The notes beneath the pieces are model-generated. The model worked only from the letters and a program-made list of their open reading frames with translations, searched no databases and was not told the origin of the DNA. Below, piece after piece: positions 28,124 through 38,591 of a DNA stretch of 64,000 nt; position 1 is the first letter of the stretch, and every line of letters begins with the position of its first letter. Made by a program: the position numbers and the translations under genes. Source of the stretch: Bacilli bacterium (GTDB taxonomy: Bacteria > Bacillota_I > Bacilli_A > ML615J-28 > CAG-313); NCBI GenBank assembly GCA_045123185.1, contig JBGVIL010000020.1, forward strand, positions 19,715 to 83,714, written 5' to 3'.

Positions 28124-28163
28124 TTAAATGAAAAGGTGAATCTACCCGAAGGTAAACTCACCT
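28124..28163 (-). terminator. rho-independent terminator of the RHS operon
   Basis: On the minus strand: AGGTGAGTTTACC-TTCG-GGTAGATTCACCT (13-bp stem, UUCG loop) followed by TTTTCATTT. Confidence 0.75.
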
Positions 28164-28191: not shown

Positions 28192-28578
28192 TTATTTCAA
28201 TATTTCATTAAATTTTTTAATAATTTTTTTCCAATCCACACTGAACCAGAATACTCTTTGATCATTAAAGTAAATTTCATTATTATTGTCATTTATTAAA
28301 TAATAAACCACAAATGTATCGACTCCATTGAAAAACAACAAATCTTTTTTATTAAACTTTTCATCCGTATGACCAACAATAATTAATGTTTTTCTTTCTG
28401 TAAAGCTGTTTTTTGAATTATCATTAAATACATCCAATAAAGATTTCATATTTTCTTTATTGATTTTTTCATCATAAAAAATAACATATCTTCTTTTCAT
28501 AACTTCAAAGCATTCAAAAGAACAATCTATTTTTTTAATTAACGGATACTCATTTATTAATTTATCTTTAATAACCAT
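28192..28578 (-). CDS. putative cognate immunity protein of the main RHS toxin (soluble)
   Basis: 128-aa ORF starting 12 nt after the RHS stop, with its GAGGTG SD at the RHS gene's stop codon (its last 2 nt overlap the TAG). No TM segments and no recognised motif. Confidence 0.5.
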   Translation of the reverse strand: MVIKDKLINEYPLIKKIDCSFECFEVMKRRYVIFYDEKINKENMKSLLDVFNDNSKNSFTERKTLIIVGHTDEKFNKKDLLFFNGVDTFVVYYLINDNNNEIYFNDQRVFWFSVDWKKIIKKFNEILK

Positions 28579-28590
28579 AATTTTTCACCT

Positions 28591-31500
28591 CTAAAAATGT
28601 GGATAAATTGGAACCATAGGAACAGGTATTACTGGTACAATCTTCTTCCAATCAACACTACTCCAGTCAAATTTTCTTGCAAAATTAACTATTCCTGATA
28701 GTCCAGCACCGATAGCCGTTTGTAACAAAATTTTTTGTCCATATGGTTTCATAAATACACTTAAGAATTTTTTGGGTTCAAACCAACCACTATTCGTAGG
28801 TATTAATTTTGAACCTATCCAGTTTCCTGCAAATGTAGTAATAAAATTAATACCTAGATCAGCAACTGTTTGCCATCCATTCACAGTTTCACCTCTAATA
28901 ACTGTTTCAAGTGTATCAACTCCTGTTTGAACTGCAGCTCCTAACCCAGCAGCAAAAGCTAATGAAGCTCCACCAGTAAATGGAGACAAACATAACGCTA
29001 ATGCATTTACACCAGAACCTAGAGCAGCACCCGCGACTCCTCGCCATAAATCACTACCTGTTTCGCCGGCAAGTGCATTAGAAGCTAATTGAGCTCCTCC
29101 TCCTATAAGTATCGCAGCTCCTACAATTCCTATAATTGCCCAAATTCCAAAGTGACCTGTAGGATCATACTTATTAACGGGATCATTTCCACAGTACGCA
29201 TATAAATTTAATCCATTGATACTTTCAGGATCTAAATATTCGATTGAATCTGGTGAAATCCATCTGCATAATTCAGGCGAATAGTAACGTGAGGATACCC
29301 AAAATAACGAAGTTTCAACATCATAACAATATCCTTTATATAACAAAGCATTGTGCTCTATCAATAATTCTGATAACTGATGTAAGTTATGATTTACCGA
29401 GTATGGGTTTTCTATAGTTACTTCTCCAAAAGCTGTATAACTATATTTTACCATAACGTTACCATTCGAATCAACAATTTGATTAATATTACCTAATAAA
29501 TCTCGAATATACAAATATGTTTTGCTGTTATATTCAAACCCAAATAATTGATTGTTAATGTCATATAAATAATTAATAATGACATTATCTTTTACTGATT
29601 TTATTAATAAGTCATTATTATAATAATAGTTAGTTATACTATTTTGATTAATCTTTTTTGTTCTTAAACCTAATTCATCGTATTCAAACAATAATTCGCC
29701 GTAACCAGTTAATTCTCCATTGGTCCAAACAATATTAATTTCTTCGTCACCTTTAGTGATCTTTGTCGGTCCTTCTAAACTATTATATGTGAAAGTTGTT
29801 GTTTGACCATTTTTTGTTGTACTTAATAACACATTAGAATATAATTCTTCTGAATCATTAGTAGCATAAGTAAATGTAGTCATATCATTATTTTTGATTT
29901 TTTGAATGATATTACTATTTTGGTCATATGTATATATATATTCATAATCTAAAACAAGACCCTGTTCAGAAATAACATATTTGTATTCTTTTGTTAGTCT
30001 ATTTAAAAAGTCATATTCATAATTGTATTTTTCAATAATGTCACCACTACTATTTACAATTTCTTTAACGACAACATTATTAAAGTCATCATATTCATAA
30101 TTAATTAATTCATTACATGGGTTATATTCTGCTGTAGGAATATAGTTTATATATTCATTTTCATAATAACGATAATGATATGTAAACTCTTTATTATTAC
30201 AATTTATTCTTTTTTGTTTTAGTTTGTTGTCAGAATCAAATTCATTTGATATTGTTATTGGTAAATTATTATAAAACTCATTTAGCAAATCTTCACTTAA
30301 TGTTTGATTAGTTCCATCAACATATTCTATTGAATTGAAAAATCCACTTACATTGTTAATTGGTTTTACAACATTATTAGATACTTGAATATTAGATCCA
30401 ATATAACTAAAACAATCTTCTAATGAATAACTATTAGTATCACCTAAAGTAATTTCATTATTATCATTATAATCATCTAATAAATCCACTTTAATTTTAA
30501 AGTTATCATCATTTATTATTGTAATATTATACCATTCATCAAGTTTTAGATATATATCAGTATCAATAAACTCTATTGTGTTTGTTGTTCTATCATTTTT
30601 AACAACTAAAATTTCTCCCGAATCTTTTAATAAAAGTGCCCATTTTAAGACTTTATTTATATCATAATTAGATAAAATATAATTTTTTGTATTAATTTCT
30701 GGGTATTCCATAAGTTTAAAGTTTATATTTAATGCATACTTTTCTTTTAATCCAAAGTTATATCCAAGTAAAGAATATATCGAATTTTCTAATCTGCTAC
30801 AATGTACATATCGCTTTATAGATGAATCATAATAAAACAAGTCTTTATCATTATTACTAGTAAAATTTTTAGATACAATATAATCTATCGGAACATTATC
30901 ATTAATATATGTACCATTAAGTGGTATGAAACATGTTGTGTTCTTTTTGTTATAAATAATCGCTTGTGATGATTTATCCTCTTTAATACTATTAATGTAT
31001 TTGTTTACTTCATCAATAACAACATTATCTTCTGAATTAATTAATTGCTTATTTCCAACAGATACAAACATTACATCAAAATTAAAACGCTTTTCTGTAA
31101 TGTTTTCATTTTGATTTTCATCACCAATAGTAAATTTATTTAAATTTCCTAATAAATTGTTACAATTAATATCATAAGTATTTTTTTGATTATTTAACCT
31201 AACTTCTAAAATTGAAGTTGCGACTACCTCTATATACATCCATTCATCACAAATTACTTTAATATATGAATTGTATACATCATTAAGAGTTTGTAATTTA
31301 ATATTGTTATTCTCATCTACAACGACTTTAACATAATTTTGACCTGTTCCTTTTAGTGTCAATAATATTGTATTAGTTGTATTTGATAAATTATTAAGTG
31401 ATATTCTAAACCACATTGATATTATTTTATTATCAACAAGTTCTGACTGAAAGCTATCTTTACTATATTTTATACCTAAATATTCTTGACCATCAATTCT

Positions 31501-34500
31501 TTTGCTATTGATTTCATTCAAATTAATTCCTAGTCTTGAATTATTATCTTTAAATGAATATATCATTTTACCAAGAGTATCATCATAAACATAATCTACT
31601 TCATTACAATCACATGTATTACTATACATCATCTCATAGCATTTATTAGGAAACATGTAATCATTTAAATTAGAATTATTCATTTTTTCTATTAATCCAT
31701 ATACAGTATTAAATTTATTCTCTTGGATATTATTATAAAAAATATGTTGAACATAATTATTAGTTTTAATTTGTTCATATTTTATATTATCATTATTATC
31801 ATATTGGTATTTAAAAATTGTATCATTATTTTTTATTTCTACAGGTCTATATTGATTATCATAGCTATATTCAATAGTATGAGATACATTTATGTTATTT
31901 TCATTAACTGGTGCTTCTATACTAAATAAATTACCATGAATCATCTTTGCAACTTTAGATCGTCCTATACCTAGTTGTGGTAGATAACTATATATTGTTG
32001 CTTTAGTCCCTCGCTTAACACTTGCTAATTTGTTTTCTGAGTACCATGCTTTGATCAAATCACTATTATAATTACTAATTTCTTTTATTTTATTTGATAC
32101 TACATCTGATGATAAAGTATCGTTATAAACAATATCTTGCACTTCTTCATCATTTATTTTAATTAAAGTATCTCGATTATATTTATCACAATATATATCA
32201 TATTTATTATTACCTGCTAGTATTGTTTGTTGATAACCATTGTAAGTATTTAATTCATTATTGATTTTATTATATTGTATAAAAGATTCATCAAGTGTAT
32301 TGTTGTTACCATCTTGAACATTTTTAGTATTTGTCAATTTAATTATATCATTGTTGTTATAATCATATAATGTGCTATAAGTAATGTATTTATTATTTTT
32401 TTCTTTACTATAGTATTGTTTTGAAATTTGATTATTATCATTGTATTCAACATTCCACTCTTTATCATTTTCAATTAATTTAACAACATTATTTTTTATA
32501 TTAGTATCATATATATACTGATATTCTTCTTTCAAATTTCTACTGTTAGTTTTAACTCGTCTCGAAATTCTACCTAATGAGTCATATTCTTCAATATTTT
32601 CAATTCCATTTAAATGATCAAAAACAATTTTTCTGTCAAAATTTAATTCATTTGTTATATAATCACCCGAAGAAGTTTTATAACCAATTAATCTGTTATG
32701 ATCATATAAGTATTCAACAATTTTAGATGACGTTTCTAATGTTTGTACTTTAGATTCATCATCATATTTATTACTATAAACTTGTTTTGATTTGTAACAA
32801 TATAAATTACCAACATATACATTTGTTACATTATTCATAATTACTTCAATTTTAACTTGACGATATCTTCTATCAGCTGTTATAACTTTATCAATTACTT
32901 GAAAATCATAATAGTGCTTAATTAATTCTTGTTCAATAATATAATTGTTTTCTTCCGTTTCAGGTGAGACAAATGTTATTTTAACTTTAACTGAACCATG
33001 ATAATTTGAAAGATATTTTACAAATAATAAAACCCTCCAAGCTTCTTTTGGCATTATATTACAATTAATCTCTTTTTTTAATATTTTTTCATCAGTTAAA
33101 CTATTAGATACTTTTATAATATTTTGTCCAATTAATTTAACAAACTTATCATTATTAACATTATATGTTGTTACACCTGTCCATGGATCAGTATTAGCTG
33201 TTATATTGATACTGTCTATTTCTGCAGTTTGTTCGCCATATATAATATTATTATTCATATCTAATTTAGGATAAACATATTGATTTAATTCAGTTTTAGT
33301 ATTTAGTACTTCCTTTAATGTTGTGGCTAAATCATAATTATAATACAAGAATTCATTATTATCATTTTCAATTTTGATTGTACCATACCCTAACTGCGTT
33401 GTATCACCAATAGATGTAATTCTTAATTTTTTGATTTTTCCTTTAGTATACTTTATTTCATATTTATCTACGTCATATCCAGATATGTTTTCATCATCAA
33501 TTATGGTATTATATTCAATACAAATATTATTTATTTTTTCTTCAAAGGTATTATTTCTAATATATACATGTTTTGTTAATATATTACCCATATAATATTT
33601 AATATTATACTCATCAATAACAACATAATAATTATCATCACATATATATTTAACTGTATCGCCTTCATTTACAATCGTTATTTCATGAATAATATTTTCA
33701 TTTAATTTAAAGTAGATTTTATTATTTGAATAGTCGAACTCAACTACTCCACCAGTGTCATATTTTATTTTATATGTTGTTCCATCAGATAAAAGTATTA
33801 TTTCTTTATCTTTTTCATAACATATACAATATTGTTCTAGTTCTTCACTGTAAATTACATAAGATGAATTAATAGATGTACAGTACTTTTTTCCATCAAA
33901 TTCACTACAACTACCACTACCAGTATGAACATAATTCAAAGTTTCTTGTAAATAGTTTGTTATAAGCAATATTAAACCATTTAATTTAAACTCTACAAGA
34001 TAATTATAATTATATGGTGTCATGTAATATAAATCTTTTATTCCTCTTAAAGAAAAAGGAATATTAGGATTATTAAATTTAAATATCTCAAAGTCATAAA
34101 CAAATGCAACTTTTATATAAGAATCATATATAGTAAAATTGTGATCTTCAGATCCCAAATATTGACCTCTCCATGAATTAGTATTAATTAAAACATTATC
34201 ATTTCCTAAAGTATCAAAAAGTAAGTATTTGAGTCCATATTTTGATGTTTTAAATTCAACATAAATATTATTTTTAGTATAGTTATATTTCATATAATCT
34301 AAAAGATTGATAGTCGTATCTGAAACAACTGTTACTTTTATAAAAGAGTTAAAATGAAAGTTTTTCAAAAATACTTTTGTCACATCAATATAAAAAGTAT
34401 TATTGTCTCTTTCGATTGAGTCAGTACAAAATTCATCAATAATTTCATTTCCTGCCTCAACCCTTAGAATTGTATTATCAGGTAATATATTATAATTTAT

Positions 34501-34683
34501 TGCACATAAAACTTTTGTTATTTCAATATCTTGAATATGGGATGTTTCAATGTATATTTTAAAATATTCATCTTTTGATATATCAATTGAATCCGTATAT
34601 ATATTTATTCGATTTGTGTCACTATAATCTATATGACAGTCTTTAATTATTAAATTTCTTATTGTGCTTAAATAAAATGACAT
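28591..34683 (-). CDS. RHS/YD-repeat polymorphic toxin (~2030 aa) with a Gly-rich hydrophobic C-terminal tip
   Basis: Many YD-type repeats (e.g. YEYDDFNNVV, YNYEYDFLNRLTKEY, YTYDQNSNII) and the core end YDVETSLFWVSSRYYSPELCRWISPD...DPVNKYDPTGH. Start preferred at the ATG at 34683 (GGGGGA SD upstream); the alternative is 34704. Confidence 0.9.
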   Translation of the reverse strand: MSFYLSTIRNLIIKDCHIDYSDTNRINIYTDSIDISKDEYFKIYIETSHIQDIEITKVLCAINYNILPDNTILRVEAGNEIIDEFCTDSIERDNNTFYIDVTKVFLKNFHFNSFIKVTVVSDTTINLLDYMKYNYTKNNIYVEFKTSKYGLKYLLFDTLGNDNVLINTNSWRGQYLGSEDHNFTIYDSYIKVAFVYDFEIFKFNNPNIPFSLRGIKDLYYMTPYNYNYLVEFKLNGLILLITNYLQETLNYVHTGSGSCSEFDGKKYCTSINSSYVIYSEELEQYCICYEKDKEIILLSDGTTYKIKYDTGGVVEFDYSNNKIYFKLNENIIHEITIVNEGDTVKYICDDNYYVVIDEYNIKYYMGNILTKHVYIRNNTFEEKINNICIEYNTIIDDENISGYDVDKYEIKYTKGKIKKLRITSIGDTTQLGYGTIKIENDNNEFLYYNYDLATTLKEVLNTKTELNQYVYPKLDMNNNIIYGEQTAEIDSINITANTDPWTGVTTYNVNNDKFVKLIGQNIIKVSNSLTDEKILKKEINCNIMPKEAWRVLLFVKYLSNYHGSVKVKITFVSPETEENNYIIEQELIKHYYDFQVIDKVITADRRYRQVKIEVIMNNVTNVYVGNLYCYKSKQVYSNKYDDESKVQTLETSSKIVEYLYDHNRLIGYKTSSGDYITNELNFDRKIVFDHLNGIENIEEYDSLGRISRRVKTNSRNLKEEYQYIYDTNIKNNVVKLIENDKEWNVEYNDNNQISKQYYSKEKNNKYITYSTLYDYNNNDIIKLTNTKNVQDGNNNTLDESFIQYNKINNELNTYNGYQQTILAGNNKYDIYCDKYNRDTLIKINDEEVQDIVYNDTLSSDVVSNKIKEISNYNSDLIKAWYSENKLASVKRGTKATIYSYLPQLGIGRSKVAKMIHGNLFSIEAPVNENNINVSHTIEYSYDNQYRPVEIKNNDTIFKYQYDNNDNIKYEQIKTNNYVQHIFYNNIQENKFNTVYGLIEKMNNSNLNDYMFPNKCYEMMYSNTCDCNEVDYVYDDTLGKMIYSFKDNNSRLGINLNEINSKRIDGQEYLGIKYSKDSFQSELVDNKIISMWFRISLNNLSNTTNTILLTLKGTGQNYVKVVVDENNNIKLQTLNDVYNSYIKVICDEWMYIEVVATSILEVRLNNQKNTYDINCNNLLGNLNKFTIGDENQNENITEKRFNFDVMFVSVGNKQLINSEDNVVIDEVNKYINSIKEDKSSQAIIYNKKNTTCFIPLNGTYINDNVPIDYIVSKNFTSNNDKDLFYYDSSIKRYVHCSRLENSIYSLLGYNFGLKEKYALNINFKLMEYPEINTKNYILSNYDINKVLKWALLLKDSGEILVVKNDRTTNTIEFIDTDIYLKLDEWYNITIINDDNFKIKVDLLDDYNDNNEITLGDTNSYSLEDCFSYIGSNIQVSNNVVKPINNVSGFFNSIEYVDGTNQTLSEDLLNEFYNNLPITISNEFDSDNKLKQKRINCNNKEFTYHYRYYENEYINYIPTAEYNPCNELINYEYDDFNNVVVKEIVNSSGDIIEKYNYEYDFLNRLTKEYKYVISEQGLVLDYEYIYTYDQNSNIIQKIKNNDMTTFTYATNDSEELYSNVLLSTTKNGQTTTFTYNSLEGPTKITKGDEEINIVWTNGELTGYGELLFEYDELGLRTKKINQNSITNYYYNNDLLIKSVKDNVIINYLYDINNQLFGFEYNSKTYLYIRDLLGNINQIVDSNGNVMVKYSYTAFGEVTIENPYSVNHNLHQLSELLIEHNALLYKGYCYDVETSLFWVSSRYYSPELCRWISPDSIEYLDPESINGLNLYAYCGNDPVNKYDPTGHFGIWAIIGIVGAAILIGGGAQLASNALAGETGSDLWRGVAGAALGSGVNALALCLSPFTGGASLAFAAGLGAAVQTGVDTLETVIRGETVNGWQTVADLGINFITTFAGNWIGSKLIPTNSGWFEPKKFLSVFMKPYGQKILLQTAIGAGLSGIVNFARKFDWSSVDWKKIVPVIPVPMVPIYPHF

Positions 34684-34684
34684 A

Positions 34685-36001
34685 TTATTTCCCCCCATTT
34701 GCATAATTAACTACTACATTTTTATCTAAATGTTTTTTTATTGCATTGTTTTCACACATTAGCTCCCTGTTCCCTCTACCCGATATGAAAACAACTTCTT
34801 TGGACTTAATATTATCTAGTGCATAATGGATTGCGTCTTGTCGAGATTCGATAACTTTATATTTTATTTTTCCTTTTATAAGTTCTTCTTGTTTTGTTAA
34901 TAACTCTTTTAGATCATTATTGCCAGGATCATTAGCTGTTATTATTATTTCATCAGCATATTTAATAGCGTAATTATAAGCAAATCTCATATCATAGTCC
35001 ATTTGGTCTATATACTTTTGTGAAGTATATTCTTCATTCCAAGTCGGAAACACATTTCCAGTTGAACCTGTAATTAATGTTATTTTAGAAATTTCATTTT
35101 TATTTCGATAATCTGCTAATACTTCTAATTGAGGAATGCTACCAGAACTAATCATTACATATCCATTCTTGTATTTAATTAACTCATCACGGCCTGGTAT
35201 AGTCACATTCTTTATGAATTCTTTAAATATATGTTTGTCAAACACATTTAAAGTATCAATCAATGTAATTAAACATAATATATTTAGCCCATGAAAAGGC
35301 ATATTTAAGTTTGTTTTGACTTTATATGTTTCATTTTTATTAACTACTTCAAAATCAAGTCCTGAAAATGAATGATATTTATTATTGTTTGGTTTTAAAT
35401 AAAACAATACATCATTTTCATTAATATTTTTATTTTCTAAAAAATATTCGGTTGTATATGTTATTACATCGTTATCTACAATCTTATGATATAAATCGAT
35501 TGTAACATCACTTACTAAACCAATTATTTTTTTATGATTTCCCTGTGTTATGAATTGTTTTTTTAAATCAACATAATTTTCAAACATTTGGTTTTCTAAT
35601 GGTTCTATATTAGTTAATACTTTAATATCAAAATCAAGTTCATCACATATTCCTTTGTTTATAGTTGAATCATTAACTTCTAATATTAAGTAATCACTAG
35701 ATGTATTAACAGCTTCTTCCAATGCATGGTAAAGCATAACTTCGTTATTAATTGGAACTTCTGTTGAAATATTATTTATGTATATAGATGTTGATGAATC
35801 AATCATTATGCTTGAATACAAAATTGTTTTATATCCTAGTCTTTTTAAATATTCATTTAAAAGATATGCTACAGTCGATTTACCATGACTTCCAGTAATT
35901 CCAATTATTTTGAGTTTTTCATTTTGTAAATAGTTATGTTTCTTTTTAATCTTTGTTTTATTGTTTTTATATAGTTTATTTAATAACTCATCTTTTCGCA
36001 T
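34685..36001 (-). CDS. divergent Mur-ligase-family (MurE-like) protein
   Basis: P-loop IGITGSHGKST, plus LILEVNDS, VLTNI, IPGRDE, ITANDPGNN and SGRGNRE in MurE-like order. The DHLD-type and KR-type motifs are not recognisable. Its stop lies 1 nt before the RHS start. Confidence 0.6.
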   Translation of the reverse strand: MRKDELLNKLYKNNKTKIKKKHNYLQNEKLKIIGITGSHGKSTVAYLLNEYLKRLGYKTILYSSIMIDSSTSIYINNISTEVPINNEVMLYHALEEAVNTSSDYLILEVNDSTINKGICDELDFDIKVLTNIEPLENQMFENYVDLKKQFITQGNHKKIIGLVSDVTIDLYHKIVDNDVITYTTEYFLENKNINENDVLFYLKPNNNKYHSFSGLDFEVVNKNETYKVKTNLNMPFHGLNILCLITLIDTLNVFDKHIFKEFIKNVTIPGRDELIKYKNGYVMISSGSIPQLEVLADYRNKNEISKITLITGSTGNVFPTWNEEYTSQKYIDQMDYDMRFAYNYAIKYADEIIITANDPGNNDLKELLTKQEELIKGKIKYKVIESRQDAIHYALDNIKSKEVVFISGRGNRELMCENNAIKKHLDKNVVVNYANGGK

Positions 36002-36002
36002 G

Positions 36003-36593
36003 TTAATCTCCTGAAGGATTATATGATGATATGATTTTAAAATCAAAATCAATCATACCTATTTTATTCATTCTTGATATATCTCTATAAATATCCAATG
36101 AAATAGATAAATTTGTATTAATTAAATTAGGTATATTATATATTCGAACACGTAACACCTTTACATCATAAACTTTAAAATCGCCAATTGTTGGTAATAA
36201 TAATTTAACTGGTGCATTTCTTGAATATGCGTTTTTAACATAAAACACTGCATCATTAGACTCAAAAATTACTGGTATGTCAATATAGTCTACTAGCGTA
36301 TTTATTATGTATTCACGGTTTGTTTTTAATACAAATGTCTTTTTTTCAGCAATTAATGTTGTTGATTCCATCGGAACATAAGTAATAGATTTTAATGTGT
36401 CTTCAGTTACCCACTTATTAAAATACTCATATGTTTTTTCTAAATACTCTGTTCCACCTATTTGGATATTTTTTAATTCTGAATTATTATATTTACAAAG
36501 TATCATTTTATCATTTTTAACTTGATAATTTTGTAATATAATTTGTTCACCATCTTTAAATGTAATTTTTGAATAATTTTCTTTGTTTTGCAT
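36003..36593 (-). CDS. hypothetical protein, first gene of the RHS operon
   Basis: 196-aa ORF with an AGGAGG SD. Its stop lies 1 nt before the start of the Mur-ligase-like gene. No motif recognised. Confidence 0.5.
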   Translation of the reverse strand: MQNKENYSKITFKDGEQIILQNYQVKNDKMILCKYNNSELKNIQIGGTEYLEKTYEYFNKWVTEDTLKSITYVPMESTTLIAEKKTFVLKTNREYIINTLVDYIDIPVIFESNDAVFYVKNAYSRNAPVKLLLPTIGDFKVYDVKVLRVRIYNIPNLINTNLSISLDIYRDISRMNKIGMIDFDFKIISSYNPSGD

Positions 36594-36658: not shown

Positions 36659-36693
36659 CTAAAAAAGAGGACTTTCTGGGTAGAAAGTCCTCT
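36659..36693 (-). terminator. rho-independent terminator after pncA (right boundary of the island)
   Basis: Stem AGAGGACTTTC/GAAAGTCCTCT (36666-36676 and 36683-36693) followed by a T6 run on the minus strand. Confidence 0.85.
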
Positions 36694-36784
36694 TATTATT
36701 TCCTATATAAATAAAATCAAACACATATTCCACCTAACTTAATTATATATCATTAGGAAAAATATGTCAACTTATAAGCTTTTG

Positions 36785-38489: not shown

Positions 38490-38591
38490 AATTATTTACC
38501 TCTTATTTTTATTAATATTTCTATTAATTTTATTTTATCAAAAAATAGTGATAAATTCAAGAAAAAATACTTATTACATATATATTATCTA

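Follow-up and report, generated by a model that had tools for sequence, protein, structure and literature searches.

The present study concerns a gene cassette on the minus strand of a 64,000-nucleotide (nt) stretch of DNA from a Bacilli bacterium (contig JBGVIL010000020.1 of assembly GCA_045123185.1, designated G000; the whole stretch is referred to as the window, and coordinates given without a prefix are positions in it). Four genes follow one another there, specifying a 196-amino acid (aa) protein termed X (36003-36593), a 438-aa MurE-derived ligase (34685-36001), a 2030-aa RHS/YD-repeat polymorphic toxin without a signal peptide (28591-34683) and, directly after the toxin gene, a candidate immunity protein of 128 aa (28192-28578). 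Read on the minus strand, X ends GGA GAT TAA (stop at 36005-36003) and is separated by a single C from the ATG of the ligase gene (36001-35999), which itself ends GGG GGG AAA TAA (stop at 34687-34685) and is separated by a single T from the ATG of the RHS gene (34683-34681), the intergenic gap being 1 nt at both junctions. This packing had been noted in an earlier interpretation based on the letters of the window (the sequence-only reading) and was confirmed here, as was the run of six G residues (34696-34691) which provides both the last Gly codons of the ligase and the Shine-Dalgarno sequence of the toxin gene. In the same manner, GGAGAT (36006-36011) encodes the final Gly-Asp of X and serves as the Shine-Dalgarno sequence of the ligase gene.

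Two start codons assigned previously had to be revised. The 455-aa version of the ligase would begin at a TTG (36052) which falls inside X, while the conserved ATG at 36001 yields 438 aa; the closest homologues are likewise 438 aa long with an equivalent ATG start, and a GGAG Shine-Dalgarno sequence is found within the last two codons of X. The start of the RHS gene was moved from 34704 to the ATG at 34683, which gives the length of 2030 aa. The four genes are bracketed by two terminator-like hairpins: a GC-rich hairpin of 13 bp with a T-run after it on the minus strand (36665-36694), which is the terminator of the preceding pncB-pncA genes, marks the upstream cassette boundary and is also kept in the syntenic relative L005, and an intrinsic-terminator-like hairpin at the operon end (28134-28163), with no further terminator-like hairpin between the two. 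The region 36593-28192 is read as a single operon of X, ligase, RHS toxin and immunity candidate, and represents a minimal copy of a conserved cassette from gut Bacilli.

The order X, ligase, giant RHS gene was observed in 37 independent cassettes with unrelated flanking contexts. All three ligase copies of the window assembly (the window itself and contigs C145 and C141) are flanked by an X-type gene on one side and a giant RHS gene on the other, and the same order of X, ligase and giant open reading frame (ORF) recurs in loci L001-L009 and L011-L015 as well as in 27 further loci, for which 399 genomes of the class were sampled. It was found in syntenic relatives (86% and 67% ligase identity), in unrelated contexts (59%, 45% and 44%) and, at 32-34% ligase identity, in named metagenome-assembled genomes of Bacilli and Erysipelotrichales. 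Down to approximately 30% identity, homologues of the ligase were always located between X-type and giant RHS genes, which upholds the suggestion of the sequence-only reading that a Mur-type ligase is dedicated to a polymorphic-toxin operon; the neighbourhood survey which it had put forward likewise revealed co-occurrence of X and ligase homologues with RHS in every cassette examined. The initial scan for related loci was dominated by canonical MurE, with only 6 of 80 loci representing the family. A reverse search starting at X homologues arrived at the same ligase and RHS neighbours, and X and the ligase were never apart in the loci read. The family is patchily distributed: 23 of the 399 genomes sampled across the class have it, as do 13 of 24 from the window's own family, and a carrier has between one and three copies. 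The linkage greatly exceeds what chance would produce, and the distribution resembles that of an accessory weapon.

The central domain of the ligase matches the Pfam family Mur_ligase_M (51.8 bits, cut-off 24) and includes the P-loop GITGSHGKST. The match to Mur_ligase_C (24.9 bits) is below the cut-off of 28.4, although the C-terminal domain is present in the structural model and aligns with MurE to its end, while the NCBIfam murE model TIGR01085 is matched at 125.6 bits (cut-off 257.3) over model positions 76-369 only. When a profile of the ligase family was compared with solved structures, MurE was matched from the P-loop to the C-terminus (4bub, E-value 2.3e-33). The AlphaFold2 model (predicted local distance difference test score, pLDDT, 91; predicted template modelling score, pTM, 0.92) and the TIGR01085 alignment agree that the N-terminal UDP-MurNAc-binding domain is absent, there being approximately 30 residues, a single helix and a linker, ahead of the P-loop strand, so that only the central ATP-binding and C-terminal domains remain. 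Foldseek placed this model nearest to MurE structures and the plant protein PAP11 (TM-score 0.71-0.75; top hit PAP11, 8r6s_Q), with weaker matches to cyanophycin synthetase CphA1 (7lgj, 0.61) and MurT (0.43-0.44). The C-terminal domain of the family carries an insertion of 25-30 aa with an invariant Trp321. The ligase descends from MurE.

The sequence-only reading described the protein as degenerate and possibly inactivated, a view which holds in part. The motif order on which it relied (GITGSHGKST, LEVNDS, TNI, PGRDE, ANDPG, GRGNRE) is present in full, and the UDP-binding N-domain and the DxAH and DNPR motifs have indeed gone. Five catalytic positions are, on the other hand, conserved in 95-100% of 120 ligase relatives of 30-99% identity: the P-loop Lys41, Glu108 and Lys147 in all 120, Asn240 in 119 and Arg271 in 114. 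Lys147 aligns with the carbamylated Lys that is invariant in reference Mur ligases, contrary to the statement that this residue was missing; the His position is occupied by Glu136 in the window clade, and over the 120 relatives it holds His 73 times, Gln 29 times and Glu ten times. The window ligase and its nine closest relatives have Glu136 for His, His237 for Asn and Glu402 for Asp. The invariant set of the Mur synthetases, reportedly defined by Bouhss and co-workers in 1997, is Lys, Glu, His, Asn, Asn, Arg and Asp; relative to this set K41, E108, N240 and R271 are kept, the His and the first Asn are replaced in the window clade, and the DxAH Asp has been lost from the family. DxAH and DNPR are missing throughout the family, the window protein having ANDPG, and the family T..D.G, at the DNPR/DNPA site. 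The ratio of nonsynonymous to synonymous substitution (dN/dS) of the ligase is 0.087 relative to L001 and 0.145 relative to L005. The ligase keeps its ATP, Mg and acyl-phosphate residues under strong purifying selection and is therefore a remodelled enzyme under strong constraint rather than one in decay; inactivation fits poorly with five catalytic positions so conserved and a dN/dS of about 0.1. The conservation pattern indicates that the ligase is likely active.

Protein X has no family match in Pfam, NCBIfam or PHROG. Its AlphaFold2 model (pLDDT 83.4) is all-beta with two sandwich domains, for which Foldseek returned generic immunoglobulin (Ig)-like sandwiches only, and its last seven residues, SYNPSGD, are unstructured (pLDDT near 51). 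X proteins are highly diverse, and in an alignment of 11 sequences (A2) the terminal Asp, Asp196 in the window, is the sole invariant column. Among 35 non-redundant cassettes the last residue of X is Asp in 32, Glu in two and Ala in one, and the C141 and L015 copies likewise finish in Asp. A profile search of 1.84 billion representatives retrieved 61 X proteins; all 54 that reach the profile end finish in an acidic residue (Asp in 46, Glu in eight), the remaining seven being fragments or cut short, and the tail follows the consensus S-S-T-T-P-[GED]-D. The usual last residue is thus Asp, which one subgroup replaces by Glu. The acidic C-terminus of the 196-aa protein is the strongest clue to the function of the cassette and was missing from the sequence-only reading. 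That the Asp might be a by-product of the overlapping Shine-Dalgarno sequence was considered and rejected, as this explanation applies only to window-type cassettes with gaps of 1-4 nt: the Asp is retained in cassettes with spacers of 11-27 nt and an AGGAGG of their own, and both GAT and GAC codons occur, and the constraint therefore acts on the protein. X evolves faster than the ligase (dN/dS of 0.38-0.45 as against 0.087-0.145).

The RHS protein matches RHS_repeat (26.8 bits, cut-off 22) and the RHS-associated core Rhs_assc_core (TIGR03696; 64.6 bits, cut-off 32.5), the latter encoded at 29152-29439 and ending in the motif DPTGH (residue 1840). Identity to the L001 homologue, which is 65% identical, collapses immediately after DP(T/S)GHF, at the beginning of a Gly/Ala-rich, hydrophobic C-terminal tip (residues 1844-2030; 28594-29154) for which no Pfam family match was obtained. 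The 128-aa gene downstream, also without a family match, is unrelated to the 187-aa gene found at the same position in L001. Such divergence after the core, combined with unrelated downstream genes, is characteristic of polymorphic tips paired with cognate immunity proteins, and the 128-aa gene is accordingly a candidate immunity gene; a membrane-acting tip is a guess only. The RHS proteins of what we term standard cassettes can be aligned with that of the window over residues 1528-1880 only, and the first approximately 1500 residues are specific to the window-type subclade. Standard N-termini have a conserved M-D-x-S-K-I-N-Q...C-G-x-G...N-L-Y-T-G-R-L pattern (L013, L014, L091-L118, L120, L121), in which a Lys at approximately residue 5 is found in 18 of 21 proteins; the M-D-x-S-K-I-N-Q motif is missing from window-type RHS proteins (window, L001, L005, L006, L007, L094), which have a long unrelated N-terminal extension instead.

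MurE activates the D-Glu carboxylate of UDP-MurNAc-L-Ala-D-Glu, i.e. a terminal acidic residue with both carboxylates free, and the M domain of CphA1 is a Mur-type domain which acts on the C-terminal Asp of a peptide chain with no nucleotide sugar. By analogy with these enzymes we propose that the terminal acidic residue of X is an acyl donor which the ligase activates and joins to an amine, a proposal whose prospects we place slightly above even. The X protein would thereby replace the nucleotide sugar as the substrate 'handle'; a protein handle is proposed because a terminal acid with two free carboxylates is what MurE normally activates, and the loss of the UDP-binding domain fits the replacement of a nucleotide handle by a protein. 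The ligase would phosphorylate a carboxylate of the terminal Asp with ATP, upon which the activated terminus would form an amide with an amine. The acceptor could be the N-terminus or a Lys of the RHS protein translated alongside, in which case a covalently armed toxin particle would result, or else a free amino acid or other amine, and release would probably proceed through a phage-type holin. The terminal Asp/Glu pattern of X, together with the conserved catalytic set, indirectly suggests ligation at the C-terminal Asp. A more specific version, in which the MurE-derived enzyme is a protein ligase that links the Asp of X by an amide or isopeptide bond to the RHS protein, at its N-terminus or at a Lys, such that the RHS cocoon gains a variable Ig-like module prior to holin-mediated release, is advanced tentatively, and we would sooner doubt than expect it to be correct in full. 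The Lys near residue 5 of the standard RHS N-termini provides one lead in this respect, although not for window-type RHS proteins.

Several observations weigh against ligation of X. No X-RHS or X-ligase fusion was found, and the 29 cassette RHS proteins contained no X-like domain. The ligases that partner Asp-ending X proteins are not told apart from the only two available partners of Glu-ending ones by any strongly conserved column, and the terminal acid might be used for docking or recognition instead. The window clade moreover departs from MurE at two ATP/Mg-site positions, with Glu136 in place of His and His237 in place of Asn, and the whole family has lost the DxAH Asp which contacts ribose, because of which catalysis is not certain. 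It is conceivable that the ligase is active on a substrate other than X, attaching an amino acid or small amine to the RHS protein or its tip, or producing a peptide cofactor, with X acting as a separate adaptor or targeting protein whose terminal Asp is used for docking, metal binding or recognition. The conserved catalytic residues would be equally expected in that event, the faster evolution of X is that of a binding or targeting module, and no residue of the ligase tracks Asp versus Glu. Under such a scheme, however, the acidic terminus seen in 54 of 54 full-length representatives would have to be explained separately; it is positioned beside an enzyme whose ancestor targets termini of just this type and from which X was never apart in the loci read, and we consider the scheme unlikely. 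The third possibility is that, at least in the window clade, the ligase homologue has no catalytic role and assists the giant RHS protein as a scaffold or chaperone. It has a precedent in PAP11, the top Foldseek hit, and would accommodate Glu136, His237 and Glu402 in this clade and the loss of DxAH and DNPR throughout the family. In a pure scaffold there would, however, be no need for the P-loop Lys, Glu108 and Lys147, which all 120 relatives share, or for Asn240 and Arg271, kept in at least 95%; the dN/dS of about 0.1 points in the same direction, and Glu or Gln at the His position could, in our view, still bind Mg. We therefore judge a purely structural role distinctly less probable again.

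Two further explanations relate the ligase to the cell wall. Its descent from MurE and the presence of holin genes in approximately 40% of cassettes would be in line with a remodelling of peptidoglycan precursors for anchoring or passage of the toxin, comparable to the wall-editing enzyme of type 10 secretion, and the sequence-only reading had similarly suggested that it might build or alter a peptide stem. Complete cassettes are, however, carried by two genomes that are 99% complete, G117 (a single contig) and G389, in which no MraY and no penicillin-binding protein (PBP) transpeptidase was found and FolC is the only other Mur-type gene, MurC-F being absent. The ligase therefore works independently of peptidoglycan, and a cell-wall function was rejected on the basis of these wall-less carriers; Mur ligases are, in addition, cytoplasmic ATP-dependent enzymes, and the UDP-binding domain and DNPR are absent from the cassette protein. 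Wall remodelling is accordingly highly improbable. That the ligase is an ordinary MurE which lies beside an RHS gene by chance is scarcely credible. The window assembly shows no other MurE, its five Mur_ligase_M genes being MurC, a MurF-like gene beside ddl and the three copies of the short family, yet it is only 81.6% complete and is also without mraY and murD; as mraY is absent along with murD and murE at this completeness, the dcw region is simply missing, i.e. an assembly gap. In G275, a 96% complete genome from the same genus, murE, mraY and murD share one contig and a single cassette ligase lies elsewhere, thus the cassette enzyme is not the only MurE of such an organism, a possibility raised by the sequence-only reading. 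The TIGR01085 score, less than half the cut-off, and the location of each of the three copies beside an RHS gene further led us to reject a housekeeping role. The figure of three copies in one genome depends on the binning of G000, a 228-contig bin of 2.49 Mb with 5% contamination; relatives nonetheless have up to three copies.

Taken with their distribution, X, ligase and RHS form a conserved, mobile and wall-independent triad. RHS toxin systems as such are known already, and the novelty lies in the obligatory pairing of X with the ligase; full-text literature searches found no paper linking a Mur ligase with Rhs systems. MurE provides the best sequence and fold match, and the P-loop, Glu, carbamyl-Lys position, Asn and Arg are common to both, but unlike MurE the cassette ligase lacks the UDP-binding N-domain, DxAH and DNPR/DNPA, possesses the Trp321-bearing insertion, is not located in a dcw cluster and occurs in wall-less genomes. 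CphA1 likewise contains a Mur-type ligase domain, but as one domain of a three-domain polymerase with a polymer substrate and no toxin link, and it is structurally less close than MurE. MurT-GatD resembles the cassette in that a Mur-family ligase lacking the UDP-binding N-domain works with a dedicated partner protein on a substrate other than a nucleotide; that partner is, however, a glutaminase, the substrate is lipid II, the system is cell-wall dependent and the fold similarity is low. In PAP11, a subunit of the plastid-encoded RNA polymerase, the MurE fold has also been recruited outside peptidoglycan synthesis, but as a eukaryotic structural subunit with no known ligase role, whereas the bacterial cassette family keeps its catalytic residues. 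With RHS/YD toxins such as WapA, the Rhs effectors of type VI secretion systems and TcB-TcC cocoons, the cassette toxin shares YD repeats, a DPxGH-ended core and a variable tip with a variable downstream gene; it differs in being devoid of a signal peptide, PAAR/VgrG, LXG and a TcA partner, and in having X and the ligase as obligatory companions. Holin-dependent export (TcdR/TcdE-type loci and type 10 secretion) is comparable in that a very large signal-less toxin is involved and paralogous cassettes encode a sigma factor and a phage-type holin, yet the cassettes have no peptidoglycan hydrolase, the window copy has neither holin nor sigma factor and a ligase is not part of those systems.

The cassette may bear on the assembly and release of very large signal-less RHS toxins in Gram-positive and wall-less bacteria, for which it supplies two obligatory partners that had not been annotated before. 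The hypothesis offered here is that of a Mur-type ligase with a protein C-terminus as acyl donor; if true, the chemistry of a classic antibiotic-target enzyme family would extend to protein ligation, and polymorphic toxins of common gut bacteria would have a new accessory pair. Should X be joined to the RHS protein itself, the cassette would contain the first Mur-family enzyme to join two proteins and a new assembly route for such toxins. The homologues are annotated in their source records as 'Mur ligase family protein', as 'hypothetical' or as MurE, and caution is warranted, as genes named Mur ligase or MurE also occur in organisms making no peptidoglycan.

In approximately 40% of cassettes the upstream region additionally encodes a sigma-70 region-4 protein, a membrane/coiled-coil protein (phrog_1863) and a holin of the Hol44 type, the holin being present in nine of about 22 cassettes with sufficient upstream sequence. 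None of these three genes was found in the window's copy; within G000 the holin and the dedicated sigma factor are encoded at the paralogous C141 cassette only, this holin gene being the sole Phage_holin_5_2 gene of the assembly. No peptidoglycan hydrolase gene was present between the sigma/holin genes and the RHS gene in any cassette read. Three cassettes have a single-pass membrane protein of about 120 aa between ligase and RHS. In the Hol44-less cassettes L120 (G089), L121 (G117), L122 (G303) and L123 (G389) a conserved single-pass membrane protein of approximately 115-127 aa is positioned between ligase and RHS or before X, and it could be an alternative release factor. A promoter-like element, GTTGTTAAA-N11-12-TTTACGTGTT, was observed in G000 at C141:23490-23518, C141:24159-24186 and C145:38551-38578, and also in L007, L013, L014 and L006; it precedes the cassette sigma gene, the membrane-protein/holin genes and the C145 cassette. 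Matches in the genome amount to the three cassette sites and one elsewhere, as against 0.6 expected, and the element is probably the signature of genes controlled by the cassette sigma factor. No copy is present in the window. Between this promoter and X of the C145 cassette lies an 11-codon mini-ORF, MGKIIIFKYEHG, with its own AGGAGG (C145, approximately 38500-38545, minus strand).

Phage relatives were also sought. X had no PHROG match and, in 50,697 phage records, no tblastn match, and matches to the ligase in the same records are canonical MurE-like proteins of 21-28% identity; a phage origin of X was rejected on these grounds. A likeness of the standard X N-terminus, K-D-R...P-N-R, to Firmicute tail fibres was not supported, there being no phage match; window-type X proteins do not have this N-terminus.

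A number of minor features were recorded. Upstream of the window cassette, between the pncA stop and the hairpin at 36665-36694, a sigma-70-type promoter match (TTGACA-17-TATAAT; 36742-36770, minus strand) agrees with the consensus at 12 of 12 positions. As a promoter it would fire straight into the hairpin, just before X, and the two together may act as leader or attenuator of the cassette, unless the match is due to chance in AT-rich DNA. Downstream of the operon, within 20392-25641, the window contains a large serine recombinase gene (23337-24953) together with two Gly-rich toxin-tip fragments that have no start (22603-23163 and 21117-21479), behind each of which lies a membrane-protein gene (22171-22593 and 20608-21105, respectively). 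Relatives of G000 measure 1.4-2.0 Mb as against its 2.49 Mb, and the murE-mraY-murD region is absent from it; the bin may be composite. The MurF-like gene beside ddl in this assembly (C26:104762-106291) has a hydrophobic multi-helix N-terminal extension of approximately 170 aa which replaces the usual N-domain. In the wall-less genome G389 (contig C5), a second, truncated ligase-like ORF of 318 aa, which starts MKIIGIRGSKGKST, is situated just upstream of the cassette (L123:4788-5744).

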